Of a stretch of DNA of 64,000 nt, positions 4,251 to 62,542 are shown in pieces; the first letter of the stretch is position 1; each line of letters starts with the position of its first letter. Below the pieces are notes generated by a model that saw only the letters and a program-made list of their open reading frames with translations, was not told where the DNA came from and did not search any database. A program made the translations under genes and the position numbers. Origin of the DNA: a virus; IMG/VR virus record IMGVR_UViG_3300045988_094674, positions 59,788 to 123,787 of that record; one strand, given 5' to 3'.

Positions 4251-4617
4251 ATGTCTACATAAAGAAGTATGCGCTTTTAAGAAGCAAACAAGAGATAGTT
4301 GCGCCGAATCTTGCGAATACTTCCTCGGTTGGGTCAAGGTCTGTGATGAACGTCCGATCCTTTTAAAAGACAACGTTGTAATAAGCGATTACGGTATGTC
4401 GTTTATTGGATATTACGATTACAATAAGAGAGATCGAGAACACTTTTGCGATTCAAACACCCTCGAAAAAATTTATGAATGTCCATCTTACTGGCTGAAA
4501 GGACTTGCTTTACATGAGCAGGAAAAAATCGCTAACAAAGAATATAAACAACGATTGGTGGCTCGCAAAGAATCGGAGAGCGTACTTCAAACTGTTCCTG
4601 ATGCAGACGATAGTTGA
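4234..4617 (+). CDS. hypothetical Cys-rich protein
   Basis: Internal ATG (MAICSKCLHKEVCAF...) of track ORF 4066-4617. Short overlap with the upstream gene. Confidence 0.4.
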   Translation: MAICSKCLHKEVCAFKKQTRDSCAESCEYFLGWVKVCDERPILLKDNVVISDYGMSFIGYYDYNKRDREHFCDSNTLEKIYECPSYWLKGLALHEQEKIANKEYKQRLVARKESESVLQTVPDADDS

Positions 4618-4671
4618 CTTTTTTGACGCAATTTGCAGAGCGTGTGAGAGAATCGAAGGATGGTGTAAGAG

Positions 4672-4824
4672 ATGAGAAAGATGTCACTAAAAGAGATGAA
4701 CAGAATGTACCATCTTCGAGAGCATGGCCGTTCTAAAAAGGTTCGTAAAAAGAATCATCATCGGGCGCAAAAATATCTTAATAGATTTGGTGCCATTCCT
4801 TACGATTACGAAAAATACATTTAA
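4672..4824 (+). CDS. small basic protein (50 aa, hypothetical)
   Basis: ATG at 4672 runs to TAA at 4822-4824. AAGGA lies upstream. Lys/Arg/His-rich. Below the track size cut-off. Confidence 0.3.
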   Translation: MRKMSLKEMNRMYHLREHGRSKKVRKKNHHRAQKYLNRFGAIPYDYEKYI

Positions 4825-4874
4825 GAACTAGACTTTTATGAGGTAACTTATGGGTTGGAGAAAGGAATAAATAT

Positions 4875-5210
4875 ATGACTTATACATTCGATACTGTTCC
4901 AGAAGATAAAGAAGTCTGGTGCACTGGATTTCGATTTGACGATACGAAAGCCGGCATCAATTGCAAGCCGGTACAAGGGACTATTCATGACAAGGATTAT
5001 TGGAAGTCGAAGTTTAAAACAAAAAATCGCACAATCAGCGTGAGTACAAATCAATCGTATTATGCATTTGCTGATACTTACGAAGAGGCCGCACATATTT
5101 ATAATGAGATGATAAACACATTTCTTGTTGAGCTTGATAATAGATACCACAAAATCGCAAGTTCATTAGAAGGCTGCTATCTATCAAATGATCGTGGTGT
5201 GATGTATTAA
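4875..5210 (+). CDS. hypothetical protein, paralogue B of 3469-3822
   Basis: See 3469-3822. Both have a similar GGAATAAA-ATATG start context. Confidence 0.55.
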   Translation: MTYTFDTVPEDKEVWCTGFRFDDTKAGINCKPVQGTIHDKDYWKSKFKTKNRTISVSTNQSYYAFADTYEEAAHIYNEMINTFLVELDNRYHKIASSLEGCYLSNDRGVMY

Positions 5211-5288
5211 AAAAGATCATCTGTTGCAGGTAGAGACACTAACTCCAAGATTGAAGGAAAAATATTTGAGCAGATTGGGGTACTTACT

Positions 5289-5489
5289 GTGACAAGAAAA
5301 CGATATATTAAATTGATTATGTCTTTGCTGTATACACGAAACGAAGCTATCGCTCAAGCAAAATACATTAACGATTTAATGAAAACAGATCCACGTTGCA
5401 CTTATCAAGTTTCGTGTGATGTTATCGATGAATATGATAATCATTGTATTGAAGTGATAAACAAAAAGAAAGCGAAAGAATATGGCTAA
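5289..5489 (+). CDS. hypothetical protein
   Basis: Track ORF with a GTG start. Overlaps the next gene by 8 nt. Confidence 0.4.
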   Translation: MTRKRYIKLIMSLLYTRNEAIAQAKYINDLMKTDPRCTYQVSCDVIDEYDNHCIEVINKKKAKEYG

Positions 5490-5682
5490 AGAATTAGGGT
5501 TTTATAAAGACCAAACAGAATATTATAAAAGATCAATCGAAGATCTACTGCAACATTATACTGATAGCTGTGGCATGTGTACGGTTAATTTAGATTGTAG
5601 TGAATGCGTTGTGGATGATTTTATCAATCAGCTACGAAATATTCTGTATAGTAGTAGTGAGTATAAAGGGGAAAACATATGA
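5482..5682 (+). CDS. hypothetical protein
   Basis: Track ORF. ATGA overlap with the next gene. Confidence 0.45.
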   Translation: MAKELGFYKDQTEYYKRSIEDLLQHYTDSCGMCTVNLDCSECVVDDFINQLRNILYSSSEYKGENI

Positions 5683-6089
5683 AGCTGCTTTTACAGTCTA
5701 ATGGAGGGTTTTCTGGATTCTATAGTAGATTTATTTTGATTGATACAGACCTACACAAAATGGTAAAAACGGATGGCCTTATGAAAGATGGTCTAACTAG
5801 AATAAAATATATTTTGGACTATATCGATAATGAGAAGATTCCAGATGTTGATGATTTTGGCAAATCTCTTTGTCAGGATTTCAATTATGATATTTCACTA
5901 CTTGAATGTTTTTTACCGACCGCCAAAGTTGTCACTAATGAATCCGTCATAATGGACGACATCAATTATGATGTTTATCTATCATCTGAAAACGTTCCGT
6001 ACAGAAAGTTCAGATTGAATTCTTCATCATATCTTGAAAATGACGCTCTCAGCGTAAAGCTTAGGGAACTATTTCAGACATTTTTATAA
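5679..6089 (+). CDS. hypothetical protein
   Basis: Track ORF, translationally coupled to the upstream gene. Confidence 0.5.
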   Translation: MKLLLQSNGGFSGFYSRFILIDTDLHKMVKTDGLMKDGLTRIKYILDYIDNEKIPDVDDFGKSLCQDFNYDISLLECFLPTAKVVTNESVIMDDINYDVYLSSENVPYRKFRLNSSSYLENDALSVKLRELFQTFL

Positions 6090-6100
6090 ACTAGTGTTTT

Positions 6101-6577
6101 ATGAAGCGTGAAAATAATATTTATGTACAAAGAGCAAAAGCTACAGCAAAAACAAAACCACTTGTAGATGACATCGTTAAAACACTATCTTCAGAGGAAC
6201 AGCGGATGCTTGGTGTTTATAACGATGAATATCTAACAATTCCGGCAGGGGGACATGTTATAAAAAGATTTTTAAAAATCAGTGACAATACTCCTGTTGC
6301 GTTTTTTGACCTGTTTGAAGAATGGTCATATATAGATGTAGCGGTTGCAACAAGAAACGATAAAAACTATCGAGGACATGGATATGCATTGAATCTTGCA
6401 CAATCGGCAATTAAATGGTATACAGCTCACAGATCCGATTTTGATAATAAACCGCTATTGTGGATAACTCGAAAAGATAATATGGCATCAAATCAATTGG
6501 CTTTGAAAATTGGGATGCATCCAGATGATACTTACAATAAATCCAACGAAGTTTGGAATTGCTACAGATACTCGTAA
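6101..6577 (+). CDS. GNAT-like N-acetyltransferase (tentative)
   Basis: The stretch ...RNDKNYRGHGYALNLAQSAIKW resembles GNAT motif A (R-x-x-G-x-G/A). Size is about 158 aa. Confidence 0.45.
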   Translation: MKRENNIYVQRAKATAKTKPLVDDIVKTLSSEEQRMLGVYNDEYLTIPAGGHVIKRFLKISDNTPVAFFDLFEEWSYIDVAVATRNDKNYRGHGYALNLAQSAIKWYTAHRSDFDNKPLLWITRKDNMASNQLALKIGMHPDDTYNKSNEVWNCYRYS

Positions 6578-6614
6578 TTTTATAAAACTTGAATTCTTAT
6601 AAAGGAGGTTCACA

Positions 6615-8068: not shown

Positions 8069-9214
8069 ATGAGAGAGAAAGTTGTGCAGAACATCTATTA
8101 CGACCGAGAAAAGAAAACCTATATTGTCTACTTCAACTACGGCAAAGATCCTTCTGGTAAGTATATTCGTAAGACTAAAACCTATAAGGACATCCGCACA
8201 GCAAAGCGTGAATTGAAGAATTTTGAGGCAGAAAAGGTCAACCAAGAGCTTGTCGATCCTTCTGACATCGCATTCAAGGAGTACGCAGAACAATGGCTCA
8301 AGTATAAGACGTCAAGCTGCGAGGCCACCACAATATATGGCTACACCCAGTTTTTAAATAAACACATCTATCCATTCATGGGCGATATGCCACTCCAAAG
8401 CATCACGTCTGACACAATCAACGATTATATTTATTTCAAAACTCACTGCGACAAGAAAGACAATCCACTCAGCTTGAACTCGATTCGCAAACACTATGAC
8501 CTGTTAAAACAGCTTTTTGATCGAGCGGTCGATTCAGACAGAATAAAAAAGAACCCTGTAAACAATGTTGCACCACCCAAGAAGACAGACGCTGAAATAT
8601 CTGTGTATACCGCAGAACAGTTGCAGATGCTATTTTCGATTATAAGCGGTACAAGAATGGAACCCATTGTAAAACTTGCAGGATACCTCGGCCTTCGTAG
8701 AGAGGAAATATGTGGACTAAAATGGGAATCAGTGAATTTTGAAAAGAACGTAATCTATATCAATAACGCAAGAACGTTTGCCGGTACTACTGTAGAGAAG
8801 GGAACAAAAAGTAAACGCAGCACTCGTGTTCTGGCAATGCCGCAGGATTTGGCAAAAACTCTAAAAGAGATCAAAGCAGAGCATGACGACTACAAAGCAA
8901 AACTTCAAGCTGACCATGGATTTGAGTATGTGATAAGCATGGAAAACGGGATGCCTATGCGCCCAAACTACGTCAGCGATTGCTTTAAGAAAACGATTGA
9001 TGATGCACATCTGCCACACATAACCCTTCATGGTATTCGTCATAGTTTCGCTTCTGTTGCAAACGAACTTGGGATTCCTCTTTATGAAATATCCACATCC
9101 CTTGGTCATTCCAATACAACTATCACAGAGCAGATTTATGTAAAGCTGTTTGATGCAAAGCATACGGACACTATAAACACAGTTGCTGATGCGCTCGCCA
9201 CAAAAGATAAATAA
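8069..9214 (+). CDS. int: tyrosine integrase
   Basis: ATG at 8069 preceded by AAAGGAG. C-terminal catalytic region has LRREE, HGIRHSFAS and LGHSNTTITEQIYVK (R..H-x-x-R..Y). Adjacent to the attP-like region. Confidence 0.85.
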   Translation: MREKVVQNIYYDREKKTYIVYFNYGKDPSGKYIRKTKTYKDIRTAKRELKNFEAEKVNQELVDPSDIAFKEYAEQWLKYKTSSCEATTIYGYTQFLNKHIYPFMGDMPLQSITSDTINDYIYFKTHCDKKDNPLSLNSIRKHYDLLKQLFDRAVDSDRIKKNPVNNVAPPKKTDAEISVYTAEQLQMLFSIISGTRMEPIVKLAGYLGLRREEICGLKWESVNFEKNVIYINNARTFAGTTVEKGTKSKRSTRVLAMPQDLAKTLKEIKAEHDDYKAKLQADHGFEYVISMENGMPMRPNYVSDCFKKTIDDAHLPHITLHGIRHSFASVANELGIPLYEISTSLGHSNTTITEQIYVKLFDAKHTDTINTVADALATKDK

Positions 9215-9752: not shown

Positions 9753-10790
9753 ATGAAGAAAGAAATGTATCTGCCACTTGAGATGTTAAAGAAAATTACA
9801 GAACAATATCCAAAAGCATGGGAGCAAATGGCAATGTTTCATAGTGAAAATGGGTCACCAGAACTTGGATCATGGCCTGAATGGTGCTATACTCCAATGA
9901 GCGCTGCGTTGGCAGTAGCATCCAAAGGGTATGATTTAAACAAGCTTCCTATTGATATAAGAATGGGAATAACATCCGTGGCTCAGGCAATATTTGCATT
10001 AGCTCCGTGGCGATTAAATAAAGAGGTCTATGTCGTCGATGAAGATTTAAAGAATCTTTTATTTGAGCAAGACGGAGAACTCGATGTCCCTGACGAAATA
10101 TTATTACAGCTTCCATATCCGTGTTTTTATGTAGAACTGCCAAACACATACTATAGGGCAGATAAGATTCATGGATTCTTTGTGACGCTGGAATATGACA
10201 TTATTAACGGTGACAAAGAGTTAAAACCTGTTTTTCTTACGGAAGATGGAAGCGTATTCAGCTATTCCATTCATATTGGAGCAAAAACAATAGAGGAAAG
10301 TGTGGATATGCTCGATAAACAGGCTCTTGAAAATACGAACGGAAATAAAGAACTAAAACGTTTGGCGCTAAGAGCGATACAGGATTCAGCAGAAACAAAA
10401 ATATTCTTAAAACGAATCCTCCAAGTGATATTATATATTCTTGCACAAAACGCAGAAATTACGCAAAATTTTGAGCAGTCATTTATCACAAAAAGAGGAA
10501 AAACAATCAAGGATAAATATTCAGAAATACGCAAGTGGGATGTTGGTATTCGTGTTGGGGCTGCAATAAGGCAGCAGAAAATGCGCGAGCAGTCTGAACA
10601 ACCAGAACGAAATCAAAATGGGCATAATTCTCCAAGACCTCATATGCGTCGTGGTCATTGGCATCATTTCTGGACCGGACCAAAGACACAACCTGAAGAA
10701 CGCAAACTTATTTTAAAATGGCTATCACCTATGACGGTTGCAACAAACACGGATGATACGCCTGTTGTAATTCATAAGGTGGGACTATGA
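9753..10790 (+). CDS. hypothetical protein with C-terminal His/Arg/Trp-rich motif
   Basis: Internal ATG of track ORF 9729-10790. C-terminal motif SPRPHMRRGHWHHFWTGP. No family named with confidence. Confidence 0.5.
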   Translation: MKKEMYLPLEMLKKITEQYPKAWEQMAMFHSENGSPELGSWPEWCYTPMSAALAVASKGYDLNKLPIDIRMGITSVAQAIFALAPWRLNKEVYVVDEDLKNLLFEQDGELDVPDEILLQLPYPCFYVELPNTYYRADKIHGFFVTLEYDIINGDKELKPVFLTEDGSVFSYSIHIGAKTIEESVDMLDKQALENTNGNKELKRLALRAIQDSAETKIFLKRILQVILYILAQNAEITQNFEQSFITKRGKTIKDKYSEIRKWDVGIRVGAAIRQQKMREQSEQPERNQNGHNSPRPHMRRGHWHHFWTGPKTQPEERKLILKWLSPMTVATNTDDTPVVIHKVGL

Positions 10791-11210: not shown

Positions 11211-11446
11211 TATACTAGTTCAATATCACTTGGCTCTACGTAGCCCGATACATTCACTGAGATTGGATACTTGCCAATGCGACTTTCAAGATTTGTCACT
11301 CGATAGCGACCATTGACTAGTTTTCCATCATAGATAAACCATTCTCCCCGGCGGCGCATACCGCAATGAGTCTGGCTGTTTGAAAATAATACTCCGTCTA
11401 ATTTAATTTTGTCTCCTGCGCACAATGTATTCTTGTTATCTGCCAT
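11210..11446 (-). CDS. hypothetical protein at the end of the lysis cassette
   Basis: Internal ATG (MADNKNTLCAGDKIKLDG...) of track ORF 11210-11476. TAATG overlap with the endolysin stop. Confidence 0.4.
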   Translation of the reverse strand: MADNKNTLCAGDKIKLDGVLFSNSQTHCGMRRRGEWFIYDGKLVNGRYRVTNLESRIGKYPISVNVSGYVEPSDIELV

Positions 11447-12093
11447 TAAAACGAATTCCAAGTTGCTGGCCCACAAATACCGTCAGCCGACAATCCATGT
11501 GCTTTCTGCCATTCCACTAACTTAGCTTTTGTGCCAGCGCCAAAGATACCATCCACTTTCAAGCCAAGATGTCGCTGCAACACAGTGACAGCATAAGACG
11601 TGCCACTAGTGCAGTCCTTAGAACCCTGACGAATTGTAGGCATGATTTTACTCACGACATGATAAGCAGTACCGCTCTTACTAATCCAACGGCTTGAAGC
11701 CTCACGCACATCGACGTGAACGAAACCGCCTGTCACTTGTGCACGACTATAATAGCCAATACCGCCGTGCTTCTGAAAGTAGGGGAGGGAAGCCACATAC
11801 AGTGCAATACGGATTGGATCGATACCAGCGATGTGAATATCTGCCGCTGTACCCAGACAATGCTGGCTGCGAGAACTGCCACCGATTGAAATATTGTACG
11901 CAGGAGTACGGTAGGCAGAACTAATCAGAACTGGTTTGCCAAAGTGATCACGAATCTGTTGTAGAGTCTCTACCAGCTCGGTTGCCACCTTGAATTCATC
12001 ACTCTTATCATTGCAAGCAAATTCATAAGCGCAGAAATTCTTAGACAATTTTTTATTCCAGTCCTTTTTCATGGAATATGTAATAATACCCAT
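11446..12093 (-). CDS. endolysin: peptidase M15 (D-Ala-D-Ala carboxypeptidase-like) plus peptidoglycan-binding domain
   Basis: SAYRTPAYN..GGSSRSQHCLGTAADI and HVD zinc-peptidase motifs. C-terminal LQRHLGLKVDGIFGAGTKAKLVEWQKAHGLSADGICGPATW looks like a PG_binding_1 repeat. Confidence 0.85.
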   Translation of the reverse strand: MGIITYSMKKDWNKKLSKNFCAYEFACNDKSDEFKVATELVETLQQIRDHFGKPVLISSAYRTPAYNISIGGSSRSQHCLGTAADIHIAGIDPIRIALYVASLPYFQKHGGIGYYSRAQVTGGFVHVDVREASSRWISKSGTAYHVVSKIMPTIRQGSKDCTSGTSYAVTVLQRHLGLKVDGIFGAGTKAKLVEWQKAHGLSADGICGPATWNSF

Positions 12094-12105: not shown

Positions 12106-12426
12106 TCAATCCTTCTTGAGTTCGGTTTCAATTTTTTCGTTCTGAATATCCAGTTCCTTAACAGCAGCTTCAATCATCATCTCAATAACAGGAGTAACCT
12201 TTACACCCATCTTCTCCAGAATAGTAATAACGTACTTCTTTTTATCGGCTTTCTTGATCGCTCCGGTAAGACCAAGCTTTTCAGCTGCACGGACAGCCAT
12301 CTGGACAATCTTGTACATACCAATCTGCTTCAGGTAAGGAATCCCATAGGCGATAAAGGCAGTGCCTGCACCAGTGATAACCAGCTTGACAACAACAGAA
12401 ATAATCTGATTCATATAATCCATCAT
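12106..12426 (-). CDS. holin (LL-H-type)
   Basis: 106 aa with an N-terminal TM helix, then GIPYLKQ...AVRAAEK...KKKYVITILEK, as in Holin_LLH proteins. Lies directly upstream of the endolysin. Confidence 0.7.
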   Translation of the reverse strand: MMDYMNQIISVVVKLVITGAGTAFIAYGIPYLKQIGMYKIVQMAVRAAEKLGLTGAIKKADKKKYVITILEKMGVKVTPVIEMMIEAAVKELDIQNEKIETELKKD

Positions 12427-12494
12427 AATAAACCTCCTGATAAAAATAAAAGACCTACTAAAAAATCAATAGGTCATAGTTGATATATTAAATT

Positions 12495-12995
12495 TTATCC
12501 ATTCTTTGGGTTGTTTTGACCGTCGATTAAATAGTTCTCAAGGGCAGCTTTTGCTTCCTTCATTGGCTCGATAGCATTTCCATCAATACCATGACTGAGC
12601 AGGGCAAGAAGAGCCTTCATAGTTACATTGCTTCCGTGTTCACTTTTATTGATGCGTTGCTCCGCCTCGACAATTTTGTGTTCGTGAACTTCAATCGTAA
12701 TGGCATTTTCTTTCTGACGCTCTTCTAACTGAACAATCTTTGACTGAAAAAGGTCAAATCGATCTTTGTCAGCGGCAAGTTTCTTATCAATCGAATCGAA
12801 CTTCTTGTCATGTTCTTCCAAATGTTCGTTCTGTTTGTTGTCTGGCTCCTTGATTTTACTGACAAATTTCATGATGACGGCGATAGCAGCCGAGATAGCA
12901 GTAATACCGCCACAGATGCTTAAAATCATGGTCTACAGTTGATGCATGGTAAAGGTGTATACGTGTGGTGCGGCATTCAATAGGACTGTACTCAT
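12495..12995 (-). CDS. membrane-anchored coiled-coil protein of the lysis cassette, with one in-frame TAG
   Basis: GGAGGTG plus ATG at 12995. TAG at 12933-12935 is in frame with track ORF 12495-12929, whose own ATG has no SD. TM helix ILSICGGITAISAAIAVIM followed by a charged coiled coil. Confidence 0.5.
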
Positions 12996-13132
12996 ACTGT
13001 TGCGTCACCTCCGTTCTTAGCCTTCAGTGTCTCGTTGATGGCGGTAAGCTGGTTTGCAGCCGCATTCGGTGCCACGACAATCTCTTTCCCGGTCTCATCG
13101 AGGATAAAGGGCTTTAGTATTTCTTGTGCCAT
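12992..13132 (-). CDS. small hypothetical protein (46 aa)
   Basis: GGAGGAATGT precedes the ATG at 13132. Its TGA forms an ATGA overlap with the start at 12995. Confidence 0.35.
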   Translation of the reverse strand: MAQEILKPFILDETGKEIVVAPNAAANQLTAINETLKAKNGGDATV

Positions 13133-13267: not shown

Positions 13268-13708
13268 TTATTTACATATGGTTCTCCAGTGATAGTGCGG
13301 TTTATCCTCGTGGAATAACAAGTGTCGCAGCCAATCGTCAACATAGATGCACAACAACGAAAGAAAGAACCATAGCACTGTAAACGGTAGACAGATTTGA
13401 CCTAGCAAATTGAAGGGTAGGGAAGAGTAGTCCCAGATATGTAACCCCAGCATCAGATTCAGCGGGATGCCCACGACAAGTTCCATTGCAGTCACAAATA
13501 ACGCACCGACAAGACCCTGTTCCCACATCGGCATCTCCCATGGAATATAATTGTTCAGACCGCCGATCACAACAAAGCAGATGCCACCCACTACAGCCAT
13601 AGTCCAGTGTGAATAACCACGCCACAATATTTCAATGCAATAATAAAGCGCCCCTCCTATCAAAAAGAGAAGGATGCACTTTAGATATTCTTTAACTTTA
13701 CTCTTCAT
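13268..13708 (-). CDS. multi-pass membrane protein
   Basis: Track ORF of 146 aa with about four hydrophobic helices (YCIEILWRGYSHWTM...). Possibly lysis or membrane associated. Confidence 0.5.
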   Translation of the reverse strand: MKSKVKEYLKCILLFLIGGALYYCIEILWRGYSHWTMAVVGGICFVVIGGLNNYIPWEMPMWEQGLVGALFVTAMELVVGIPLNLMLGLHIWDYSSLPFNLLGQICLPFTVLWFFLSLLCIYVDDWLRHLLFHEDKPHYHWRTICK

Positions 13709-14238
13709 GATCTGACTACCTGAGCAACGCTGTCGTACTCGATTTTAATAGCATTAAGCTGTTCTAAAGTGTTACATTCCTTAATGCTCAATTCCAACTC
13801 CTGTTGATGAGAAACAAATGGTTTAACATATACACCAATTTCTAGAGCTAACGCAGCTAAATTTTCATACGTCTACTCTACACATTCGGCACCAGTGCTA
13901 TTCCATGTTAGCTTAAACGGCTGTGCGGTGGCTACAGAAATTTGATATAGAGCAAGATTTGAAGTCAACAAGGATTGCTTCTCACTTGTAACAGAATAAT
14001 ATTTACCATCTGTCCATTGTAATGGATGATTTTCAAGATATGTAGCTAGAATAGTTTTACTTTCTGAAACCTTTTTTTCTTTCTGAATCTTTAATGTATT
14101 TTCAGGATTGTTTTCAGTGAGTTCTGTGTATTCTTCTTTTGTTAATTTCCCTGCTAAATAAAAAGTATCTAATTTTGCAGTAAAATTATTTGTTTTTCCG
14201 GAAGCGATTACTTTTTTACATAGTTCATAAATGCTCAT
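13705..14238 (-). CDS. hypothetical protein with one in-frame TAG
   Basis: Track ORF 13873-14238 ends in TAG at 13873-13875. The frame stays open for 55 more codons to a TGA at 13705-13707, which forms an ATGA overlap with the next start. Confidence 0.5.
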
Positions 14239-14462: not shown

Positions 14463-15722
14463 TTACTGGAATGCGCCGGAGACGGCTTTGATGTAGCCGC
14501 CGGTGCCGGATGCACTGCGGCTGGCGCTGATGCGGAAATTGAATGCTGAACCGTTGGCAACAGTCTTGTTGGTGAACACGATGTTCATGCCTTTCTTCAC
14601 CTCAGTGGTAGCATCCTGCCAGGCTGGGGACGGGTCGTTGGCGTTGTTCGTGACCTCCGCCTTAAACACAGCATCATCGGGAATGCTACCCGTCACCTGA
14701 AGGACGGCAACGGTAATGTCACCATCCACTGCCAGCGGGGTGGTCAGGGTCACACTTGCGGCGTGGACGGCCTTGGTGAAGGTTGCGGACGCGCTGGTGG
14801 TTCCCTTGCCGTCGCTCACCTCAACCGTCATGGTGTGGTTGCCGTTCAGGATGCGCTGGAATCCGGCAGCATCGGCGACCTGCTCAAAGGTCAGGACCGT
14901 GCCGCTGGCAACACCGGCGCGAGTTTTAGTGGTCTTGCCGTCCAGCTTTTCGGTGACAGTCAGCGTGTCGCCGTCGGCATCGGTAACGGTATACTTCCAT
15001 GCAAAGACCGTGTTCTTCTCGCCAAGAGCTGCGCCGTCCGTGCTGACGGTAGGTGCAGTGTTGACACCGACCGTGCCGTCGTCAGAGACCGCGAGTGAAG
15101 AGGGCAGTACAAAAGCGGGGCGAACACCATAGGAGTAGCCGTACCAGTAGTTGCCGGTCTAGCCATTGATGTCAACGCCAAAGATGTTGGTGCCACTGCT
15201 GACGTCCGGAGAGCGCAGCCACCAAATGGCAGCGCTGCCGCCGTTGTAGGCGACACGCTTGTTGATGCCGTCAGAGCTGTTGTCGAAGTACGCCAGCCGA
15301 ACACCCTCCTCGGGGAAATAGCTGTCGTCTCTGGTCGTAAAGCCAACCTCATAACCAGACAGCAGGAATACTTTCGTGCTCATGCCATTGGAGCCGGTGG
15401 CAAGGCTTCCGCCGCTGCCAACGCCGTTCTGGTACGGAATCTTGACCTATTTGATGACGTTGCGAATGTCCGTATCAATCAGGTTGTAGAATGTTCCGTT
15501 CAGGTATGTATCGATGCTGGAACCCTTGTAGGAGTTATTGTTGCTGAACACAGACGTTGTGTAGATGTCCTTCATCAGCAGCTACGTCCCGGCACAACTC
15601 GAATCATAGGTGCTGGTATTCGGATTACCCTGCTGCACAACAATAAAATCTTTGGACGCGCCGTTGACCTTGATTTTAACGGTGCTGCCAACAGCCTTCA
15701 TGCCGAGATTTACATTTGCCAT
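14463..15722 (-). CDS. GC-rich tail fibre/receptor-binding candidate (WWLRSP...GVRPAFVL type domain) with three in-frame TAGs
   Basis: AGGAGGTG plus ATG at 15722. A single frame runs to TAA at 14463, interrupted only by TAG at 15582, 15447 and 15159. Motifs IWWLRSP and YGVRPAFVL (DUF6273-like). C-terminal Ig-like repeats. Confidence 0.6.
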
Positions 15723-18891: not shown

Positions 18892-21837
18892 TTATGATTT
18901 TGGCTCAACATATTTATTTGCCGATGCGCTCAGATATGTGATGTACGGGTAGTACGGATAATAGCGGCTCATGGTAACATTCATAACGCCCTCACCCAGA
19001 TTGGTATCTATCTTTTTTGTAATCCATTCTACGGGGGTATCATTCTTTAGATAGCGAGCTGCATATTTTATTTTCTGATTAACGTCCAACCACGGAATTA
19101 AATGCATACGAAGCGTTATAGTGTCGGTTAGTCTACAGTTTTTCCAAAGCTGATATTCTGTTGCGAGCATCAAATCCTCGTCATTCGTGTAAGCATCAAA
19201 CTCTCCACCGGAACATACGAGATTTCTGCGTCCAATTTTATCAATCGTAAAGCGACTATTATAAAGGTTCGTCAAATCCTTCGGGTCTGTAACAACGATA
19301 TACTTCAAATTGTCACAGCCTTCAATTTCTTTATCTTTTTCAATCTCCGCATCTGTAGGCATCTTATCTACAAATTTCGCCATAGCATGAGACTGAGATT
19401 GACCAAGAAAATAGATCCGGCTCTCTTTTATGAGGGCAGGATCTTCAATCTTTTCTGTATGTTTTCCTTCTTCAGTATTTGTTACCTTGTAATAATGCGT
19501 TTCGTACATTTTTGTTTCTTCGTTGTACTCTTCTTTTACGATATACTGAATCTTTGGATTTATCTCAGTCTTGTCATATTCACCAGTTGTAGAATTGAAC
19601 ACCCATTTATAAGCACCTTCGTCTGCCTGGTCAAGATATTTTTCTCCATACTGTACAACATAGTAACGTCCTTTTTTCATAACATTTGTATCAATAGGAA
19701 TATCATTACCATTTTGATCTGTTGATGCCTTATATACCATCATTGGACCATATACTTGTAACGCGTGATCTTTATATTGCGCTCCATCTTTGTCAACAGC
19801 GGTTGTGTAAACATCATTTACAATATACATATGAGTATTAAGCGGGATATTTACTGGACAGATGAAAGATAAGCGTGACCCGTCCGATATAATTGCGTTT
19901 TTTAGTTTTAAAACTATAATAGAGTTTCCAATGTTATTGATATCAAGCTGAATTTCGAAATCATCGTATTTGTCTTTTGGAATCCCTAATATTTCGGCAA
20001 CAGAGTCTTTCCATTTTGATGCTGACATGCCATTATCTCGTGCCTTATAAAACACTCTGCCAGTACCTTCTGGGTCGTCTTCCTCTAGTTTATCCTTGCA
20101 GAAATAATCGCTGGTGATAGTAGAACCCCATGCCTCAACACAATTATGTACCTGCGTATAATCAACCGTCGAATTTTCTGTGATAACAAGACTTTTGAAA
20201 ATATCAGGGCTAATTACAACAGGGTCATCATACCCGTTTGGAATCTCTTTGCATACAAAAGTATCATCATCAAAGTACATCTCAAACGGGTAATATAGGT
20301 CACGCAACTCTGTTAGAATCGTCCAAACAGTAGTTCCAGTATTATACTCCATGTCGTGTGGAATGCGCCGCTTCCAATAATCAATCACGCATTTTGTCAT
20401 ACCGGAAAGCTCGAAAGTATTCTTGATAACATCTCGCACATAATACGGTTTTGATTTGTCCTCTGTGTAAATCTTATCTCCATTCGCATCCTTGCTCTCA
20501 GTAAGTTTATACATTGGAATTCGTGTCGAGTACCCAGTCAATGTTCCACCCAGTGTTCCATCAAGCAGGGATACTAAATCTACACACGACAAGTCAAGCT
20601 TGTTAGTCATTGCATCATACGAGATACCATTCGACTGAATCGCGTAAACCCCGACTGAGAACCAATGTACGCCATCCTCATCGATATAATTTGCACAATT
20701 CCTGATAACTTTATCCTTCGCAACTGTTTGGATAATAAACTGCTGAATCTGTCCCAGACCATCTTTTAGTTCCCATATGTGGCCCTGAATATCATGCATA
20801 GAATATCCGACAAATGGACTCGTCTTTTTATACTGGTTCTTTAATTCTGGCTCGCTCCAACCGGCAATTGCCGAAACATCAACTGGCTCTAAGACTCTAT
20901 TCGCAATCGTTTCTCCTTCAATGGCAGCGATCATATTTTTTAGATAGATAGACTTTCCATCTATTGTACATGTGAGACCTTTTGCGTCATAAGATAAAAC
21001 AGCGTCGTTAAATTCTAGGTCTTTCGTTGTCCATGATTTTAAATCAAACACAAAACCAGCAACAGGCTTAACATCTTCAGTTTTCTAAGTCAAATCTGAT
21101 AAGTTGTTTGAATTGTAGACTTTATTGTAAGCAAGCTTATAAACCTCAGAAATATAATCTATAACACCGTTACGACTAACTGGAATTAACTCGTCTCCAT
21201 CCTCTAAAAACAGCGTATATGCAATTCTCCGAGTTACTGTGACGCCAACCGCCTCATTATCAGCAGTCCAAGCATCGTCGCAACCGCAAGCGGTAGAATA
21301 GTCACCAATTTCAAATGGGCCATTTTCAGTTGAGAAATCCTTATAGAGATTTAAATTGCGTGCAGTCCAAATGATTCGTGGTCGATTTATATTGTTAATA
21401 TTTGAATATAGGTCATGCTTTGTTGCTTTGATTTTTGCAATATAAGTCAGCAACTCTTTGTTCTTTAAATCGTATTCTATATTATTTTTTACAATAGAAT
21501 CAATCGAATCGCCGTCAATGTCTCCATCATATGTTAAAATACTGACATCTTTCTCTGAAGTTGGGGCTTTCATACCGATATAGATACGAACTTTTTTATC
21601 AATCTAATCTTCCGCTTCAAACTGAGAGATAGAAAAACCCATCATTGGGAAAATAGACAAACTGTATGTACGGCGAATATCAGAATCTGCATCGTTAGAA
21701 CCGGAACCATCCAAAGTCAGGCCCTCAATGCTATCAATGATTTGAGACTCTTTGTTCAATAATTCTACTCGTGTAAACAGACTCTTGGAATGACTGGTAA
21801 GCAAAGCCAAGTCTTCTTGTGTTGGCAAATAAGTCAT
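18892..21837 (-). CDS. tail-associated (Tal-like) baseplate protein with two in-frame TAGs
   Basis: Track ORFs 21604-21837, 21085-21573 and 18892-21051 share one frame and are separated only by TAG at 21604 and 21085. The one SD (GGAGGTGG) is at 21837. Joined size is 981 aa, in the position downstream of the Dit candidate. Confidence 0.6.
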
Positions 21838-23236: not shown

Positions 23237-23512
23237 TTATTTATATTCAATTTCACTTCCATCATCAATGACCGTATATTCTGTCTGATTATCAGAATTT
23301 ATCGGGCTGTATACAAGCTCATTGTTGATAAAAATAAAATCATTGCAACTCACACCATTTCCCTCATTGGGCTGACCTTTCTGTGGAAATTCTTCAAAAA
23401 TTATTTCGTCTTCTAAAGGCTTTGGCAAAACACTTTTATGATACCATGCTCCATTATAAAGCCTTCCGTTTTTGTCTATTTTACACAGATATTTAAATCC
23501 TTCTTTTTTCAT
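23237..23512 (-). CDS. hypothetical protein
   Basis: Internal ATG (MKKEGFKYLCK...) of track ORF 23237-23575, starting just after the upstream TGA. Confidence 0.45.
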   Translation of the reverse strand: MKKEGFKYLCKIDKNGRLYNGAWYHKSVLPKPLEDEIIFEEFPQKGQPNEGNGVSCNDFIFINNELVYSPINSDNQTEYTVIDDGSEIEYK

Positions 23513-23513
23513 C

Positions 23514-25277
23514 TCACATAAACCCATAAATCTTGTACGGTACACACATACCGTTGGATTGATTCCAACCGTCACTTGACGGGGCTTCCAGACCGAAAAA
23601 AGTTGCTACGCCAGCAACACCAGTCGCGTATTTAGATGTTCGTTCATAACCGACTCCAAATTCAATACGATCAGAATAAGCTGTTACCGACCGTTTATGT
23701 ACGGTGTTCCATGGATATACCATAGACATTTCTACGCCATTGACCGGAACAATTAAAGAAACAAGACCAGCGTTACCACCACCGGAAAACCATGTTCCGT
23801 TCTTCTGACTACGGAAAAGAATCAATATTGCGCTATAATTTCCTAATCCATCAAGCCGTACTGTCTGTGATGTGAAACTATCGGAATTATTTTCATATAG
23901 TTCTTGCTTATTTCGAATACCTTTAAAAATAATACCTTCGCCTGTAATAGCACAACCAGCACCTCCGCTATTTTTAATTGTAACACCGTCAGATGACATT
24001 TTTACAAAATTGTTTCCGTAAATAATGTCCACACCACTATCAGAGATTTCAACTTTTTTTGTTCCGCTTCCGATTGTAATATTTCCAGTAAGATCAAGAT
24101 GAATAGCACTAATTTTACCAGCCTTAATCACACTCGCATCCAAACCAGCAGTTGCAATAGAATCTGTTGTAACAGCGCCTTTTAGATTGATTTTACTAGC
24201 ACTAATGCTGACATTATCAGCCTGCTGATTTATCATTGAAGCAATCTTTTTACCAGTGTAGTCGGTGGCAGACACTTTAGAGGTGATATTCGTTGCGTTT
24301 TGTTTAATGCTCGATTCTGCCGTACTAAGTCTTGTACTGATTCCGTTAATACCTTGCTGATATTTTGTTTCTGTTACTCTGGCCTCAATAGCCTCTTTGG
24401 TCACTTTCAAATCAGAATCGTACTTGGTCTTAAAACTGGATAGGTCTGTATTGGCCTTATCTGCTTTCTCTTCGGCACGGTCGGCAACAAAATCATCCGT
24501 ATATTTAGATGCCACAACCCAGTCTGTGCGTTGGTAACTATCTTCAATCATGCGTCCAGTCTGGCAAATCAGCATAAAGCCATCAGAAGTTACACGTGCC
24601 CACACATCACCTTGGTCATATGGGGTAGTAGGAGTCCCATAAAACACCCGGCGTTTTCCGTCAACAGTGTCATTGTCACGACTTGCTGCATTAAGAACCT
24701 TTAGAATGTCCTTGTTTGTAATTTCACTCCAACTGTATGAACCACCACTTTCAACCCACTTGTAAGCTGTTCCACCTACCTTATTATAATAGAGGTCTCC
24801 AACGTGTACCTTTTTAGCGTCAGCGGTCGTCCAGTCCTTGGCAGGGGAGTTAGATATAGTTGGCTCTGCACTTTCAAACCAAATGATATAGCTACCATCG
24901 ATCTGGTCTTTTACATCATTGAACTTAATAATCGTATCAGCAAAATCATTCCCAATAAAATTGTCTACCTTATCGCCAATAACATTTACCTTACTGTCAA
25001 CGGTCTTCATTGTTCCGATATTATCAGGAGAGCACACGAGCCGTTTCATATCACCCTGTAATGCGGTAACGACAACGTTCTGACCAACCGTAAATACCTG
25101 ATCGGATGTGATGGTATACTGGCTACCGAACACGGCAATCGTATAGTCGTTCCCATTTACTGCGACAACTGTACCTACTTGTGACTTATCAAAGTTTGCA
25201 TCATCTAGTTTTTTGTCAATTGTATCCACGACCACCTGAGCAATCACGTCAAGTGCGTCAGAATTTGTTTGAGACAT
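23514..25277 (-). CDS. tail structural protein (hypothetical)
   Basis: 587 aa with AAGGAGGGATGAG upstream. First gene after the TMP terminator. Confidence 0.5.
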   Translation of the reverse strand: MSQTNSDALDVIAQVVVDTIDKKLDDANFDKSQVGTVVAVNGNDYTIAVFGSQYTITSDQVFTVGQNVVVTALQGDMKRLVCSPDNIGTMKTVDSKVNVIGDKVDNFIGNDFADTIIKFNDVKDQIDGSYIIWFESAEPTISNSPAKDWTTADAKKVHVGDLYYNKVGGTAYKWVESGGSYSWSEITNKDILKVLNAASRDNDTVDGKRRVFYGTPTTPYDQGDVWARVTSDGFMLICQTGRMIEDSYQRTDWVVASKYTDDFVADRAEEKADKANTDLSSFKTKYDSDLKVTKEAIEARVTETKYQQGINGISTRLSTAESSIKQNATNITSKVSATDYTGKKIASMINQQADNVSISASKINLKGAVTTDSIATAGLDASVIKAGKISAIHLDLTGNITIGSGTKKVEISDSGVDIIYGNNFVKMSSDGVTIKNSGGAGCAITGEGIIFKGIRNKQELYENNSDSFTSQTVRLDGLGNYSAILILFRSQKNGTWFSGGGNAGLVSLIVPVNGVEMSMVYPWNTVHKRSVTAYSDRIEFGVGYERTSKYATGVAGVATFFGLEAPSSDGWNQSNGMCVPYKIYGFM

Positions 25278-32500: not shown

Positions 32501-33021
32501 AATAAAACACCTCCGTATATTTTGGATACGCGATTGTAATATTATTATAGCCAGAATATCGTATGTAGTCAACGAATATTTTGTTTTCTCCTATTTTGTA
32601 TCGCGCCAGAGAGTAGCGCGTCTCCTCATTTCCACCTACTTCTTTAAGTCGTCTGGTTACGTCTGAGGTGGACTTCTGAACTTTCGCCCAGAACTGACTA
32701 TCCTTCCAGTGGTTGCTCACTGACCCTTTTTAGTCGATGAACCTTCCACCTTCCTACATTATATAATAGGGGAGTGGATCGGCTGCTGACCGCCCATTGT
32801 AAACGCTACTTAGCACTCGATTATTACCATATTTTGGCAATACGATAAAACCGAGCTTTTATCTCAGCATATAGCATCCATATCCTTGTTTCTATCTTTC
32901 GATTCCTACATTATATAAATATAACAATAGGCGATATGGCTCTTAGGGTTTCCCAGCACTCTAGGGGCTATTTTATTTTTACATGGTGCCGCATCCTATA
33001 TTTTTATACGCAACAAATATA

Positions 33022-35451
33022 AGAGGGCATATTAACTTTACCCGCACCATTTTTGAGCTTTCCGCTCATCTGCATTACAGACAACACGCCGGAAATGGCG
33101 GCTGTCAGAGTTGGTAATGCGCCAGCAAATTTTACAGCACTATCTGCACCGTCAACAAAAACAGTAGCAAGGCTTATAAAGAACTTCGGGATATCAGACT
33201 TCATCAAGTCCGTACTAAACTTCTGGAATGCAGAATCAAGCTGATTAAGCTTCGCCTGCAAGGAGTCCATGTACGTCTGGTTCTCACGCATTGCGCTGCC
33301 ACTAGAATTGAGTGCCTGCTTCATAGCGTCTTCAGCAACACTAAAATTATTCAGCAGGGCAGATGTACTCTGACCTCCTCTCTTTCCAGAGATCAGCTCA
33401 GTAATATTTGCCTGTGTTGTGTCAGACAGATCTTTCCAAACCTCAGAAAGTTCCTTCATAATCTGATAGGTTGATTTGAAGGTATTATTATCCTTCATAA
33501 TATCAACACCAGCAAGTTGCTTCAACTCAGATCGAAGTTCGGACACAGAATCTGCCATCCCATCTGTTGCGATACCGGCATTTTCTGCATCTGTTTTTGA
33601 AGCACGAAGGTACATACTCAAAGTTTTTAGGTAAGTGCCACTCGTATCTGCGTCCTGAAGTACACCGTTTACAGCAGACGCCAAACTAAGCGTCTCCTGA
33701 TATGTATTTCCGGCGGCAGACATCGCAGCGGAACTTTTCTGCATGATAATTCCAAGGTCGTTCATACTGACTGGTTCAGTATTAGCGATTTGGTTCATGC
33801 AGTCCAGAAGACGCTCTGCATCATCAGCAACCAACCCAAAACCTTGCATTGCAGAAATCAGGTAAGAAGAAGCAGTTGTTGCATTATCTATCTGGTCTCC
33901 AACATTAGCCATAAGAGCAGACACACGAGCAAGCTCTTCAGAGTCTTTGTCCGTATATCCAAGTCGCTTCTAATCGGCAGTGCTACTTACAAGATCAGAA
34001 ATATTAGCACCAAGATTACGAGCGTTTGTTGCAGTTCTATCGAGATATTCGTTCATCTCGTCGTCAGTCATTTTACTGACTTTTTTAAGCTCTGTTACAG
34101 CCGTATCAAGTTCCAGAACATTATTATAAACCTCTCGCAGACCTTGTTTGACCATAGCCACGCCAGCCATAGCAATAGCTGTCTGGAAGTGCTCCTTAAA
34201 CAGACGAGACAGTTTTTGACCAAGAGTTTCTGTAGTGGCCCCACATCTGCTGGCCTCAACCTCAAGATTTGATAGTCTTGCACTAAGATCAGTAACATTG
34301 CCTTCACAGCCAGCAGCAGAAGCTTTTATTCCGTTTAAACTATCAATTAGCCAAGAATATTTACTTTTATTTGCAATAGAGTCTTCTAACTTCGTTGCAC
34401 GTTCATAAACACTCTTAAACTTCGTCATATCAACATTGGCTTGATTTATATCTCTAAAATCAAATCCAAGTTCTTTTAAATGTTGACTTGTAGAATCAAT
34501 AGTTGTATCAAGAGTCTTGCATTTTTTATCAAAGTCTTGAATTGCTTTCCCTGGTGTAGTGTTCTCAATAGAAGCAAGCTGATCTCGTAACTCTTTTAAC
34601 TTTCCAGAAGTTTTTCCAGTTCCATCTTCTCCATATAAATATTTTTTGATATTATCATTTTTATAGTTGGAGTTATTCTTAGAATAGTTTTCAAGAGACT
34701 GAATCTTTTTTTGATATTTTTCATACTCGGATTCTTGAGATATGAGAGTCTTTTTTAAATCATCTGCAATTTCTTGATTTTGTTTTTTTAGTTCTTTTGC
34801 AGCCGAATCAGCACCTTTTGCAGTATTCCTGTCAGCATTGAATTTTCCGGTTTTTTCGATATCCTCAAGCTTTAACTTCTGAGTTTCCGTAATTACATCT
34901 TTTGTTTTTGTCTTGAGTTTATCCATCTCATCGTTGATTGCGCTCAATCTAGTCTGTACCGCTTTCAACTCAGATGATTTGTTTCCATTAGCAATTAACA
35001 ATGCTTCATCCGCTTTTAACTTTGCTTGACGATTTGCAAGGCTGAAAAGGCGAGAAATATCACTTTTTGAAGTATCTTGCGGTTTTGCAGAACCAGACTT
35101 TCCGGTATCAACCTTAACTGTCTGCTTTGCTGCAGATTGCATAGCTTTTTTAAGCTGTGCGGTTACTTTACTCTGGTCAACCTTAACATCAAGTGTAACC
35201 TTTGGAGTTCTTAATTTTCCACTCTTGACCACCTTGTCAAGTGCGTCATTTATATTGCGGATTGTATCGTTTTGATTCACTCCGAAAGCAATTTTTACTG
35301 GTTTTTCTTTATAATACTCTTTAACAGAATTAAATTGCTTGTCTAACTCTGCTTTATTTGCGTCAATAACAACCTTAACCTTGATAGCTGTTACAGAGGA
35401 AGTATCAGCACTACTTGCGGTGTTTGTATTATCCGCCATACCGTTGGTCAC
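33022..35451 (-). CDS. tail tape measure protein, exon 1 (proposed), with one in-frame TAG
   Basis: Track ORFs 33970-35451 and 33004-33924 share a frame and are joined by TAG at 33970-33972. The region ...ALMANVGDQIDNATTASSYLISAMQGFGL... resembles the TP901-type TMP core. Start is GTG at 35451 or ATG at 35439. Confidence 0.65.
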
Positions 35452-36137: not shown

Positions 36138-37127
36138 TCAAATCTCAAACCGATCCTTTGCAGACTGAATCTTTGTCGTATCCTTTTTGATGTAATACTT
36201 GTTGGTCACATCCGTGCCAGCATGGTTGAGCAGGGAAGAGACATCTTCCAGACTCATACCCGCATTCTTCAGCAGAGTAGCACCACTATGCCGAAAATCG
36301 TGCGGATGCAGCGTAGGCTCATCAATCATCTCACCAATCTTCTTACACCAATCACCGGCAGTGCTTGAAGTAATCGGCATCCATGCGTCATTGATTTTCG
36401 CACCAACAAACACATAGCCGCCATCCTCAATATCATGCTCAGTACGATATTCCTTCAGCTCTTTTAAAAGCTCAGAAACCTCCTTGCTGAACATCAAATC
36501 AACGATTTTGCCTTCCTTTTCCAGAACGTCATGTACCATGCGGTTCTCATAATCGATAGACTTCCAGAGTGTATTTCGCACAGCGTTAACACGAGCCATC
36601 GTGGACAGCGAGAATAGAGCATACAGCCGCAACGTCATCGCATTATCCTTCATGTGAATAGTGGTCGCAGATTCAACCAACACATTCAGTTTTTCTCGCA
36701 TCAGTTTAACCTCATCCGGCGTAAGGTATGTCTGCTTCACGACAGCCACGTCCTTAGTCGGTCGGTCAATGAACTCCATCGGATTCTCTTTGATGATTTT
36801 CTTCTTGCGAAGATACCGATACAGTGCAGAAATCGTGCTCATACGTCGCTTCATACGAGCAGAGTTATTTCCATGCTTCTTACAGTAGAACAGAAATTCC
36901 TCAATATCCTCTTCTTCAAGTTCTGTCACAGGGGCATTTCCCTGATTGTCCAGAACATAAATCATCCACTGCTTGAAATCCGATTCATAATTGTAAACAG
37001 TAGACGGGCTGAGATCACGGATGCCCATATCAGTCTCATATCTATCCCAGTATTTTAAAGACACTGGGTTTACGTTCTTGAACTTCTCAGCATCCCATAA
37101 CTTCAGCGGTTTACTTCTTGTAGCCAT
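36138..37127 (-). CDS. XerC/D-like tyrosine recombinase (second recombinase in the window)
   Basis: N-terminal SAM-like domain (...STISALYRYLRKKKIIKENP). Catalytic HDFRHSGATLL and LLNHAGTDVTNKYYIK. Confidence 0.8.
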   Translation of the reverse strand: MATRSKPLKLWDAEKFKNVNPVSLKYWDRYETDMGIRDLSPSTVYNYESDFKQWMIYVLDNQGNAPVTELEEEDIEEFLFYCKKHGNNSARMKRRMSTISALYRYLRKKKIIKENPMEFIDRPTKDVAVVKQTYLTPDEVKLMREKLNVLVESATTIHMKDNAMTLRLYALFSLSTMARVNAVRNTLWKSIDYENRMVHDVLEKEGKIVDLMFSKEVSELLKELKEYRTEHDIEDGGYVFVGAKINDAWMPITSSTAGDWCKKIGEMIDEPTLHPHDFRHSGATLLKNAGMSLEDVSSLLNHAGTDVTNKYYIKKDTTKIQSAKDRFEI

Positions 37128-52314: not shown

Positions 52315-52330
52315 ACAAACACCTCCATTC

Positions 52331-52372
52331 AAAATCAAAATAAAAGCCGTAGAACGTGCGCACATCCTACGG
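52331..52372 (-). terminator. rho-independent terminator immediately upstream of the late-operon RBS
   Basis: On the minus strand, CCGTAG-GATGTGCGCACGTT-CTACGG followed by CTTTTATTTTGATTTTG. The GGAGGTG of the next gene follows directly. Confidence 0.6.
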
Positions 52373-52987: not shown

Positions 52988-52992
52988 ATAAT

Positions 52993-62539: not shown

Positions 62540-62542
62540 CTC

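Follow-up and report, generated by a model that had tools for sequence, protein, structure and literature searches.

An SPbeta-like gut phage probably uses TAG as a tryptophan codon in its late genes, with a proposed suppressor-dependent lock

What does a TAG codon mean when it stands 21 codons into a membrane protein gene of a phage lysis cassette, and does it time lysis? The question is raised by a window of 64,000 nucleotides (nt) of the virus record IMGVR_UViG_3300045988_094674 (positions below are those of the window), in which the lysis cassette occupies 13132-11210 on the minus strand and includes, between a 46-codon open reading frame (ORF) and the holin, the gene of a transmembrane (TM) protein with TAG at codon 21 (TAG21). 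An earlier reading of this DNA (hereafter the original prediction) held that in-frame TAG is confined to late genes and that TAG21 is a possible translational timer. Drawing on ~500 related loci from IMG/VR, ENA/Logan and GenBank, we conclude that this SPbeta-like phage probably uses TAG as a tryptophan codon in its late genes, with a putative lock on their expression that would depend on its own suppressor tRNA, and that TAG21 is one instance of a genome-wide pattern, not a dedicated switch.

The start of the TM gene decides whether TAG21 is translated at all. The TGA stop of the 46-codon ORF overlaps ATG 12995 as ATGA, and the TM gene is therefore translationally coupled to that ORF; a Shine-Dalgarno sequence (SD; GGAGGTG) lies 10 nt upstream of this ATG, TAG follows at 12935-12933 in the sequence TAG ACC ATG, and the internal ATG at 12929 has no preceding SD; the SD, the coupled start, the TAG and the lack of an SD before the internal ATG had been read correctly in the original prediction. 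In a protein search the TM protein had 178 homologues; those of full length (164-172 aa), including ones from standard-code Faecalibacterium prophages, keep the 20 residues that precede the TAG, and a 94%-identical relative exhibits four synonymous and no non-synonymous changes upstream of the TAG. Because the N-terminal 20 residues are conserved family-wide and the upstream changes are synonymous only, ATG 12995 is the true start, and the competing start at ATG 12929, which the original prediction had allowed for, is contradicted by the conserved codons as well as by the SD and coupling at 12995. The same evidence bears on the suggestion that TAG21 is an inactivating mutation or a sequencing error, with the real product made from ATG 12929. 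An internal ATG is indeed present and some databases list a 144-aa protein, but 52 independent assemblies, which belong to two clades, all have TAG at this codon and the SD and coupled start at 12995 are intact; the conserved start region and the synonymous changes therefore exclude a pseudogene and a sequencing error, and we consider this explanation highly improbable.

Public gene calls for the family are inconsistent (P0001-P0009 vs. P0038-P0041), as TAG is either rendered as Q or avoided by truncation at the internal ATG. The 166-aa database entries with Q at position 21 are code 15 translations, the DNA of which has TAG and fails under table 11, and the 144-aa entries are standard-code calls from the internal ATG; both kinds of entry are wrong if TAG is Trp.

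The TM protein consists of an uncharged 20-aa N-terminus, a single TM helix (~aa 21-43 by hydropathy and structure model), a long coiled coil and a highly conserved C-terminal motif, and TAG21 occupies its sole Trp position. Its model is all-helical and of low confidence (predicted local distance difference test, pLDDT, 67; predicted template modelling score, pTM, 0.29). A PDB profile search returned nothing meaningful and there was no Pfam match, XhlA included, the only family signal being a weak match over the coiled coil to phrog_937 'hemolysin' (XhlA-like; E=7.5e-4). Like XhlA of PBSX and holin-antiholin pairs, it is a small coiled-coil membrane protein immediately upstream of holin and endolysin, but its TM helix is N-terminal, whereas that of XhlA is C-terminal.

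Codon 21 itself points to the amino acid. Across 92 loci it is TAG in 52, TGG in 40 and CAG in none; two TAG clades of the TM gene (94-97% and ~75% identity to the window) flank a TGG clade (86%), the codon has switched between TAG and TGG at least twice from clade to clade, and all of 22 standard-code homologues have W in this column. A similar pattern emerged in the other late genes. Of the 11 in-frame TAGs in the window, eight are matched by TGG and one by CAG, the other two being in variable stretches, whilst family-wide 27 columns with any TAG pair with TGG and six with CAG or CAA (binomial p=4.6e-9), CAG being twice as common as TGG in late genes. The peptide context of the sites (TAG given as X) reads SHVL-X-ACSR in the large terminase subunit (TerL), SSTAD-X-KR in the tape-measure-like protein and KKI-X-AYPGDSLNLGDIVDCYNCK in the 341-aa protein. 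The original prediction had implied glutamine, with CAG as the replacement codon, and this part does not survive the comparison; if TAG is Trp, the synonymous replacement is therefore TGG, not CAG.

A second line of evidence is the suppressor. The tRNA(CUA) of the window possesses G1.U72, G73, an encoded CCA end and an anticodon loop CU-CUA-AA. In 80 loci centred on the TerL gene (terL), the slot after tRNA-Ser(UGA) and before tRNA-Met is filled by either tRNA(CUA) or tRNA-Trp(CCA), which have in common G1.U72, C2-G71, G3-C70, A7-U66, G73, the CCA end and the loop CU-NNN-AA, and the anticodon loops of which differ by C35 to U; some CUA variants are 77-78% identical overall to tRNA-Trp(CCA). 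Counted over ~6,000 aligned codons per locus, in-frame TAG was found in 50 of 55 loci with tRNA(CUA), in none of six with tRNA-Trp(CCA) and in four of 18 with neither tRNA. The window tRNA(CUA) is marginally closest to Trp (0.67 vs. 0.64 for Asn), and we link it to Trp because of its slot, stems and loop and the 77-78% intermediate variants, not its overall identity. The simplest reading would be that the suppressor is a tRNA-Trp with its anticodon changed from CCA to CUA, which would still deliver Trp.

Because TAG alternates with TGG, the suppressor matches tRNA-Trp(CCA) in slot, stem and loop, and the phages with the CCA tRNA are TAG-free, TAG most likely encodes Trp and not Gln (code 15). 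Ordinary code 15, known from crAss-like phages and phAss-1, has a Gln-accepting suppressor read TAG; no other TAG reassignment has so far been reported for phages, public gene callers translate the family's TAG in this way, and it could account for the six columns shared with CAG or CAA. Four of these six rest on single loci however, compatible with errors or real nonsense mutations, and the 27 columns shared with TGG include ones in which every other sequence has Trp (tape-measure-like protein, 80/80; 981-aa protein, 45/45). The TAG columns thus do not align with Gln in standard-code homologues, CAG does not occur at TM codon 21 in any of the 92 loci, and the suppressor is not of a glutamine type, its closest type by homology and synteny being the phage tRNA-Trp(CCA). 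A Gln reading is in our view quite unlikely, notwithstanding the general knowledge that amber suppressors derived from tRNA-Trp can be glutaminylated in Escherichia coli. The assignment of TAG to Trp does not seem to have been reported for phages: in the literature we found only TAG-to-Gln and TGA-to-Trp (or Gly) in phages, and nothing relevant on TAG/UAG to tryptophan.

A number of points weigh on the other side. The amino acid is read from codon exchange and tRNA ancestry only, the window tRNA(CUA) is only 67% identical to tRNA-Trp(CCA) and unusual in its D and T loops, and columns shared by TAG and CAG do exist, codons 92 and 98 of the DUF6273 gene being the only ones beyond single loci. 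Amber suppressors made from E. coli tRNA-Trp are charged largely with Gln, which keeps tRNA ancestry from settling the matter by itself, and TAG may be read as a mixture of Trp and Gln. Glutaminylation of TAG suppressors in E. coli has also been noted with regard to recoded phages (10.1101/2021.08.26.457843). As regards the lock, 43% of related loci have TGG in place of TAG21, and the tRNA array lies directly upstream of the late operon, between hairpins, with no sigma-70-like promoter found on that strand. Finally, 64 kb were read directly, of a phage of ~135 kb.

Two further observations concern the tRNA. ARAGORN misses one common tRNA(CUA) variant (GCGCCTATAATTCAAAGG...CTCTAAAA...), which was recovered by pattern search at ~8230-8320 in L116, L125, L141 and others; L093 has at ~8232 a sibling tRNA, the anticodon loop of which reads TTTTAGAAA, and no in-frame TAG. 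In the window tRNA(CUA), the D loop is without the GG pair (AAUGCCUA) and the T loop reads UUGGAUU instead of UUCRAnU (by eye), which may represent a swapped G19-C56 tertiary pair.

Where the TAG codons lie is the next step in the answer. Gene calling with TAA and TGA as stops and SD-supported starts gave 81 genes, eight of which hold the 11 in-frame TAGs, all on the minus strand within the late block at 12495-51199 (Table 1), whilst none occurs in the 27 plus-strand genes (including NrdG-like, dUTPase, GNAT, FolD, integrase and AcrVA2-like genes) or in the 15 minus-strand genes at 53812-63995 (including antirepressor, YonO-like RNA polymerase, ClpP, PhoH and metallophosphatase genes); four ORFs (3828, 7645, 61436 and 62230) hold TAG only under an unsupported upstream start. 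Within the window the original prediction is thus borne out, both in that TAG appears only in packaging, head-tail, tail, fibre and lysis genes (all 11 within 12.5-51.2 kb) and in that the early, middle and plus-strand genes are free of it (0/42 genes), as is the homing endonuclease gene of the group I intron. Counted by gene class, there are 139 TGG and 11 TAG among late Trp-type codons vs. 104 TGG and 0 TAG among early ones (Fisher p=0.0033; p=0.011 over all codons), TAG making up 7% of late Trp codons. As a terminator TAG is unused, the called genes ending in TAA (48) or TGA (33). Out-of-frame TAG is common in late and early classes alike and TAG is therefore not depleted overall; the base that follows it in frame is A in six cases, G in three, C in two and T in none, with no significant difference from TGG context.

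Table 1. Positions and properties of the genes, tRNAs and hairpins discussed in the text.
Feature	Position	Strand	Remarks
Tyrosine integrase	8069-9214	+	marks temperate life style; no TAG
Endolysin (Peptidase_M15_3 + PG_binding_1)	11446-12093	-	no TAG in window
Holin (Holin_LLH / phrog_6918)	12106-12426	-	no TAG; no Trp codon
Lysis-cassette TM protein, 166 aa	12495-12995	-	SD-coupled ATG 12995; TAG codon 21
46-codon ORF	12992-13132	-	strong SD; conserved in 54 related loci
CmpB-like 4-TM protein (PF06541, phrog_20274)	13268-13708	-	precedes cassette; no TAG in window
177-aa tail-fibre-associated protein	13705-14238	-	TAG 13875-13873 (codon 122); column TGG 70 / TAG 8
DUF6273 / Hoc-like Ig protein, homologue of diversity-generating retroelement (DGR) targets	14463-15722	-	TAGs 15584, 15449, 15161 (codons 47, 92, 188)
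981-aa tail/baseplate-type protein	18892-21837	-	TAGs 21606 (codon 78), 21087 (codon 251)
136-aa late protein	23237-23647	-	TAG 23608-23606 (codon 14); TGG in single relative found
811-aa coiled-coil, tape-measure-like protein	33004-35439	-	TAG 33972-33970 (codon 490); TGG in 80/80 relatives
341-aa structural-module protein	40621-41646	-	TAG 41442-41440 (codon 69); column TGG 109 / TAG 27
Terminase large subunit (YonF-like)	49349-51199	-	TAG 51013-51011 (codon 63), just before Walker A; TGG 49 / TAG 32
Strong terminator-like hairpin (12 bp) + U-run	52346-52373	-	between array + spacer and first late gene
Amber-suppressor tRNA(CUA)	52913-52987	-	last gene of five-tRNA array
Other array tRNAs: Lys(UUU), Ser(UGA), Tyr(GUA), Thr(UGU)	52993-53685	-	
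Terminator-like hairpin + U-run	53695-53718	-	between last middle gene and first tRNA
YonO-like single-subunit RNA polymerase, 927 aa	58506-61289	-	Pfam RdRP PF05183, E=7e-15; crAss-type also

At the level of single sites, codon 47 of the DUF6273 gene aligns with TGG, codon 92 with CAG, and codon 188 lies in a variable region; codon 78 of the 981-aa protein is TGG in 45 of 45 relatives and its codon 251 falls in a poorly aligned stretch. In the 341-aa protein the nearby W89 is TAG in 43 relatives, and terL codon 63 is W in a prophage homologue from Anaerovorax. A conserved ORF at 32720-32478 (minus strand, 80 codons, 78 loci), not among the called genes, reaches TAG at codon 76, followed by four more codons and TAA, and the region in which the next gene starts (ATG 32500) overlaps with this TAG. 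The TAG may terminate the ORF, with TAA as a back-up, or else encode Trp and be followed by a four-residue tail.

The relatives extend this map and qualify it. Among them, two of 85 W columns in early, middle and plus-strand genes carry TAG, compared with 19 of 110 in late genes (p=7.6e-4), so the late bias predicted for the window holds for the family too, but is not absolute: the only recurrent exception is a small early/middle gene (61898-62170, minus strand) that precedes the RNA polymerase gene and in 21 of 93 loci has W29 written as TAG. Beyond the window, for which only the clearly coding plus-strand genes of L419 were used and L339 1-6500 was left out, the nucleotide-metabolism genes of L419, which cover ~10 kb, showed no recurrent TAG. 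Reference-free ORFs with TAG read through were also tried in L339 and L419 and rejected as spurious antisense ORFs with TAG/TAA exchange.

TAG is also unevenly placed within the late genes, in two respects. It occurs in 10 of 17 W columns of the lysis region against nine of 93 structural ones (p=2e-5), and the endolysin and the CmpB-like protein, both TAG-free in the window, carry it in relatives, the former at W12 (30 of 84) as well as at W136 and W212, the latter in six of eight Trp columns. The statement that holin and endolysin lack TAG is therefore correct for the window and, as to the endolysin, incorrect for the family, and any gating is not channelled through the one accessory TM protein, by way of which, along with virion assembly, the original prediction had it act. 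Secondly, TAG lies early in genes. On average it stands at relative position 0.27 in the window and TGG at 0.55 (permutation p=0.0004 for all late W codons, 0.0012 within TAG-bearing genes), and family-wide the frequency of TAG per W column is 9.7% over the first 15% of a gene but 0.3% over its last quarter. Taken together, this early placement and the enrichment in the lysis region speak for selection on where TAG is placed.

How this pattern would work can be set out as follows. Host tryptophanyl-tRNA synthetase (TrpRS), or an unseen phage factor, would charge the suppressor with Trp. Before the suppressor accumulates, ribosomes would stop early in TAG-bearing mRNAs and release short peptides, which for the TM protein would be a 20-residue peptide that ends before the TM helix, and full-length late and lysis proteins would be made only once the tRNA is expressed. 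The outcome would be a lock against premature or leaky (lysogenic) expression, which may also sharpen timing. As first suggested, the full-length TM protein needs the phage tRNA(CUA), and the host lineage is a standard-code one (below).

The same TAG map is predicted by passive tolerance without any regulation, in which TGG drifts to the effectively synonymous TAG where the suppressor is present, while TAG is purged from genes translated earlier or in the lysogen, so that the map would read out expression timing and not set it. In keeping with this, near-identical relatives differ in having TAG or TGG at almost every site, TAG is infrequent in most of the columns in which it occurs, few of the late Trp codons of the window are TAG, and TAG21 is absent in 40 of 92 loci. 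Pure drift however predicts neither the strong 5' bias within genes nor the six-fold enrichment of the lysis region over structural W columns. Both biases fit a lock, but fit equally well selection against costly long truncation products under incomplete suppression, which is not selection for regulation. We regard passive tolerance as possible, if rather doubtful, and prefer a suppressor-dependent lock. As TGG stands at codon 21 in those 40 loci, TAG21 is dispensable and the cassette works without it; late-gene gating thus appears supported as a pattern, which is what stands of the original prediction of a translational timer, whilst a timer role of TAG21 itself is a hypothesis.

The sequence TAG ACC ATG raises a further possibility, namely a two-isoform switch, in which ribosomes stop at TAG21 and re-initiate at ATG 12929, 3 nt downstream, yielding a 144-aa protein without the conserved N-terminus, whilst read-through with the suppressor yields the 166-aa form, a pair akin to the dual start of holin and antiholin with its ratio set by the suppressor level. 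A Met is found two codons after the TAG in all four TAG-bearing sequence types, standard-code gene callers already predict the 144-aa product (P0038-P0041), and coupling to the upstream ORF implies a high ribosome flux. However, no SD precedes ATG 12929, this Met also occurs in some, though not all, TGG-bearing clades and is not TAG-specific, and the two TAG clades represent only two independent observations. A re-initiation isoform is possible on this sequence, but we consider such a switch unlikely.

As to when the suppressor might be expressed, the gene of the YonO-like polymerase lies just upstream of the tRNA array; the protein is 82-100% identical in 80 loci, all 16 of its Trp codons are TGG in the window and in 158 related loci, and it is presumably the late-gene polymerase. 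No release factor or aminoacyl-tRNA synthetase gene was found in the window, and a permissive Rfam search of 52300-53900 returned the five tRNAs only, with no HDV-like (hepatitis delta virus) or theta ribozyme. Between tRNA(CUA) and the strong hairpin, at 52373-52913 (minus strand), lie 540 nt without an ORF that are 88-99% conserved in many relatives and may contain a regulatory RNA or the promoter of the late genes. A tRNA-Met also lies here in many relatives but is missing in the window.

The phage itself is an SPbeta-like temperate phage of ~135 kb, of which the window is about half; its relatives are contigs of 125-150 kb, and the family is present in several hundred IMG/VR and metagenome loci. 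Its TerL shares 23-28% identity with YonF of SPbeta and with terminases from Clostridioides phages of 132 kb, which we read as a resemblance to SPbeta and not as a taxonomic assignment. The host is probably Faecalibacterium, because a prophage of the family in Faecalibacterium was found via the TM protein and because the DUF6273 gene is shared with phages of that genus. This prophage (L174), reached through protein P0069, which NCBI names Faecalibacterium, has the same lysis cassette and sits beside housekeeping genes in the chromosome of assembly GCA_003478405.1. Faecalibacterium uses table 11, the standard code. The host lineage is thus standard-code, the window's own host being inferred, and a prophage of the family in such a chromosome argues against a host that itself decodes TAG as a sense codon, which the original prediction had named as a condition that would speak against it. 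Scanning GTDB genomes with TerL yielded a single prophage, in Anaerovorax (65% identical). Megablast of 40 kb of the window against the GenBank phage collection found no family member, the sole matches being the DUF6273 gene of the Faecalibacterium phages Lelie and Toutatis, and no cultured or GenBank-deposited member of the family was found.

Our results are largely in agreement with studies on stop-codon-recoded gut phages (Lak, crAss-like, Agate and Jade phages), in which recoding is biased to late genes (10.1101/2021.08.26.457843; PMC9523058). The window phage resembles them in having its own suppressor tRNA, which tracks in-frame TAG across 80 related loci, recoded stops only in structural and lysis genes, early genes that can be read under the standard code, a standard-code host lineage, and occurrence as a prophage, which is also known for recoded phages. 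Its in-frame recoded stops lie in conserved genes, homologues span every alignable site, and TAG is concentrated late and unused as a terminator in called genes. Lysis-cassette genes, a TM protein included, are preferentially recoded in those phages too, and a block on premature late expression has been proposed for them, so that the gating or timer idea, including a recoded TM protein in the lysis cassette, is already published (10.1101/2021.08.26.457843). Our results differ in that the preprint of Borges et al. saw only TAG-to-Gln and TGA-to-Trp reassignments (10.1101/2021.08.26.457843), whilst here TAG would be Trp, in an SPbeta-like lineage, and recoding is sparse, with 11 codons in 64 kb.

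Code 4-type phages (Jade, Agate and the Lera zeta-crAss phage) read TGA as Trp via tRNA(UCA) (PMC12386605). There, as is probably the case here, a tRNA-Trp-related suppressor inserts Trp at a stop codon that differs from TGG by one transition, and the sites align with Trp, but the codon is TGA and the anticodon change is at position 34, against TAG and position 35 in the present family. Anticodon position 35 is a major identity element for TrpRS, and Trp charging of tRNA(CUA) is therefore less easily explained than that of the code 4-type suppressor.

Similar in habitat and size is phAss-1, of the proposed 'Phassvirus' (~136 kb), a human-gut phage with TAG in terL, tape-measure and lysis genes and a tRNA-SUP-CTA (PMC10607447). 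Its TAG sites align with Gln, however, its suppressor is classed as a Gln tRNA, its recoded ORFs number ~41 and its tRNAs 36, and its lineage is related to Enterococcus phage EF1 (PMC10607447). We considered and rejected the phAss-1 group as the identity of the window phage, as it is a different, Gln-recoded group and there was no nucleotide match in the GenBank phage collection. With SPbeta and the Clostridioides phages LIBA2945 and LIBA6276 the window phage shares a YonF-like terminase, a YonO-like polymerase and a genome size in the range of 130-150 kb, and with SPbeta-like phages more generally an integrase and long co-oriented late operons; the cultured SPbeta-like phages compared are unlike it in being standard-code, with Y or L at terL codon 63, not W.

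Other features of the window and its relatives are as follows. The holin matches Holin_LLH (PF09682) at 27.7 bits, against a gathering cut-off of 24.9, and phrog_6918 at E=2e-15, and a 78-codon ORF follows directly after the endolysin. Convergent to the lysis cassette, at 9753-10790 on the plus strand, is an AcrVA2-like gene (PF26125 in the relatives' precomputed annotation), also noted in L001-L004, L010 and L174, the L010 copy being split by a frameshift. A group I intron (RF00028, 77.9 bits) lies inside the late structural block at 44363-44704 (minus strand) and adjoins an HNH homing endonuclease gene (phrog_559, E=1e-82) at 43128-44243 (minus strand); the ORFs that flank it, 44701-45525 and 42175-42876, may be exons of one late gene. 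The late block further contains, both free of TAG, a second tyrosine recombinase (phrog_1, E=5e-49) at 36138-37127 (minus strand) and a Holliday-junction-resolvase-like endonuclease at 37673-38146 (minus strand). The DUF6273/Hoc-like gene shares 77-79% protein and ~80-82% DNA identity with DGR target genes of phages Lelie and Toutatis, and its codon 188 TAG is inside a region that is hypervariable between these phages, but there is no adjacent reverse transcriptase and the window holds no template repeat for the variable region. In L339, a relative with a 100%-identical RNA polymerase, ~2.3 kb at 4296-6603 (~3.4-5.7 kb past the window's right end) lack any ORF of at least 70 codons, in any frame and under either code, and may be an origin or an RNA-rich region.

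We think it likely that these loci represent a family of ~135-kb temperate SPbeta-like gut phages in which UAG means Trp by way of a single C35-to-U change in the phages' own tRNA-Trp, and the amber codons are placed preferentially towards the 5' ends of late genes, above all of lysis genes, where they would act as a lock. The gating idea itself is not new; what seems to be new is the Trp assignment via a tRNA-Trp-derived suppressor. If TAG is Trp, the stop-codon reassignments known in phages gain a further member, which contradicts the working rule that phage amber recoding means Gln, a rule which is built into gene callers and which here gave Q-substituted or truncated proteins. The family would also capture a code change in progress, with sister genomes that differ by one anticodon base and by the presence of in-frame TAG; as recoded and unrecoded sister genomes are both at hand, the first steps of codon reassignment could be studied directly. 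This raises the question of how, in a Firmicute host, Trp comes to be loaded onto a tRNA with a CUA anticodon, and the 5'-proximal placement and lysis enrichment of TAG provide quantitative, testable predictions for a lock on late genes in a temperate phage that lives in an important gut commensal.

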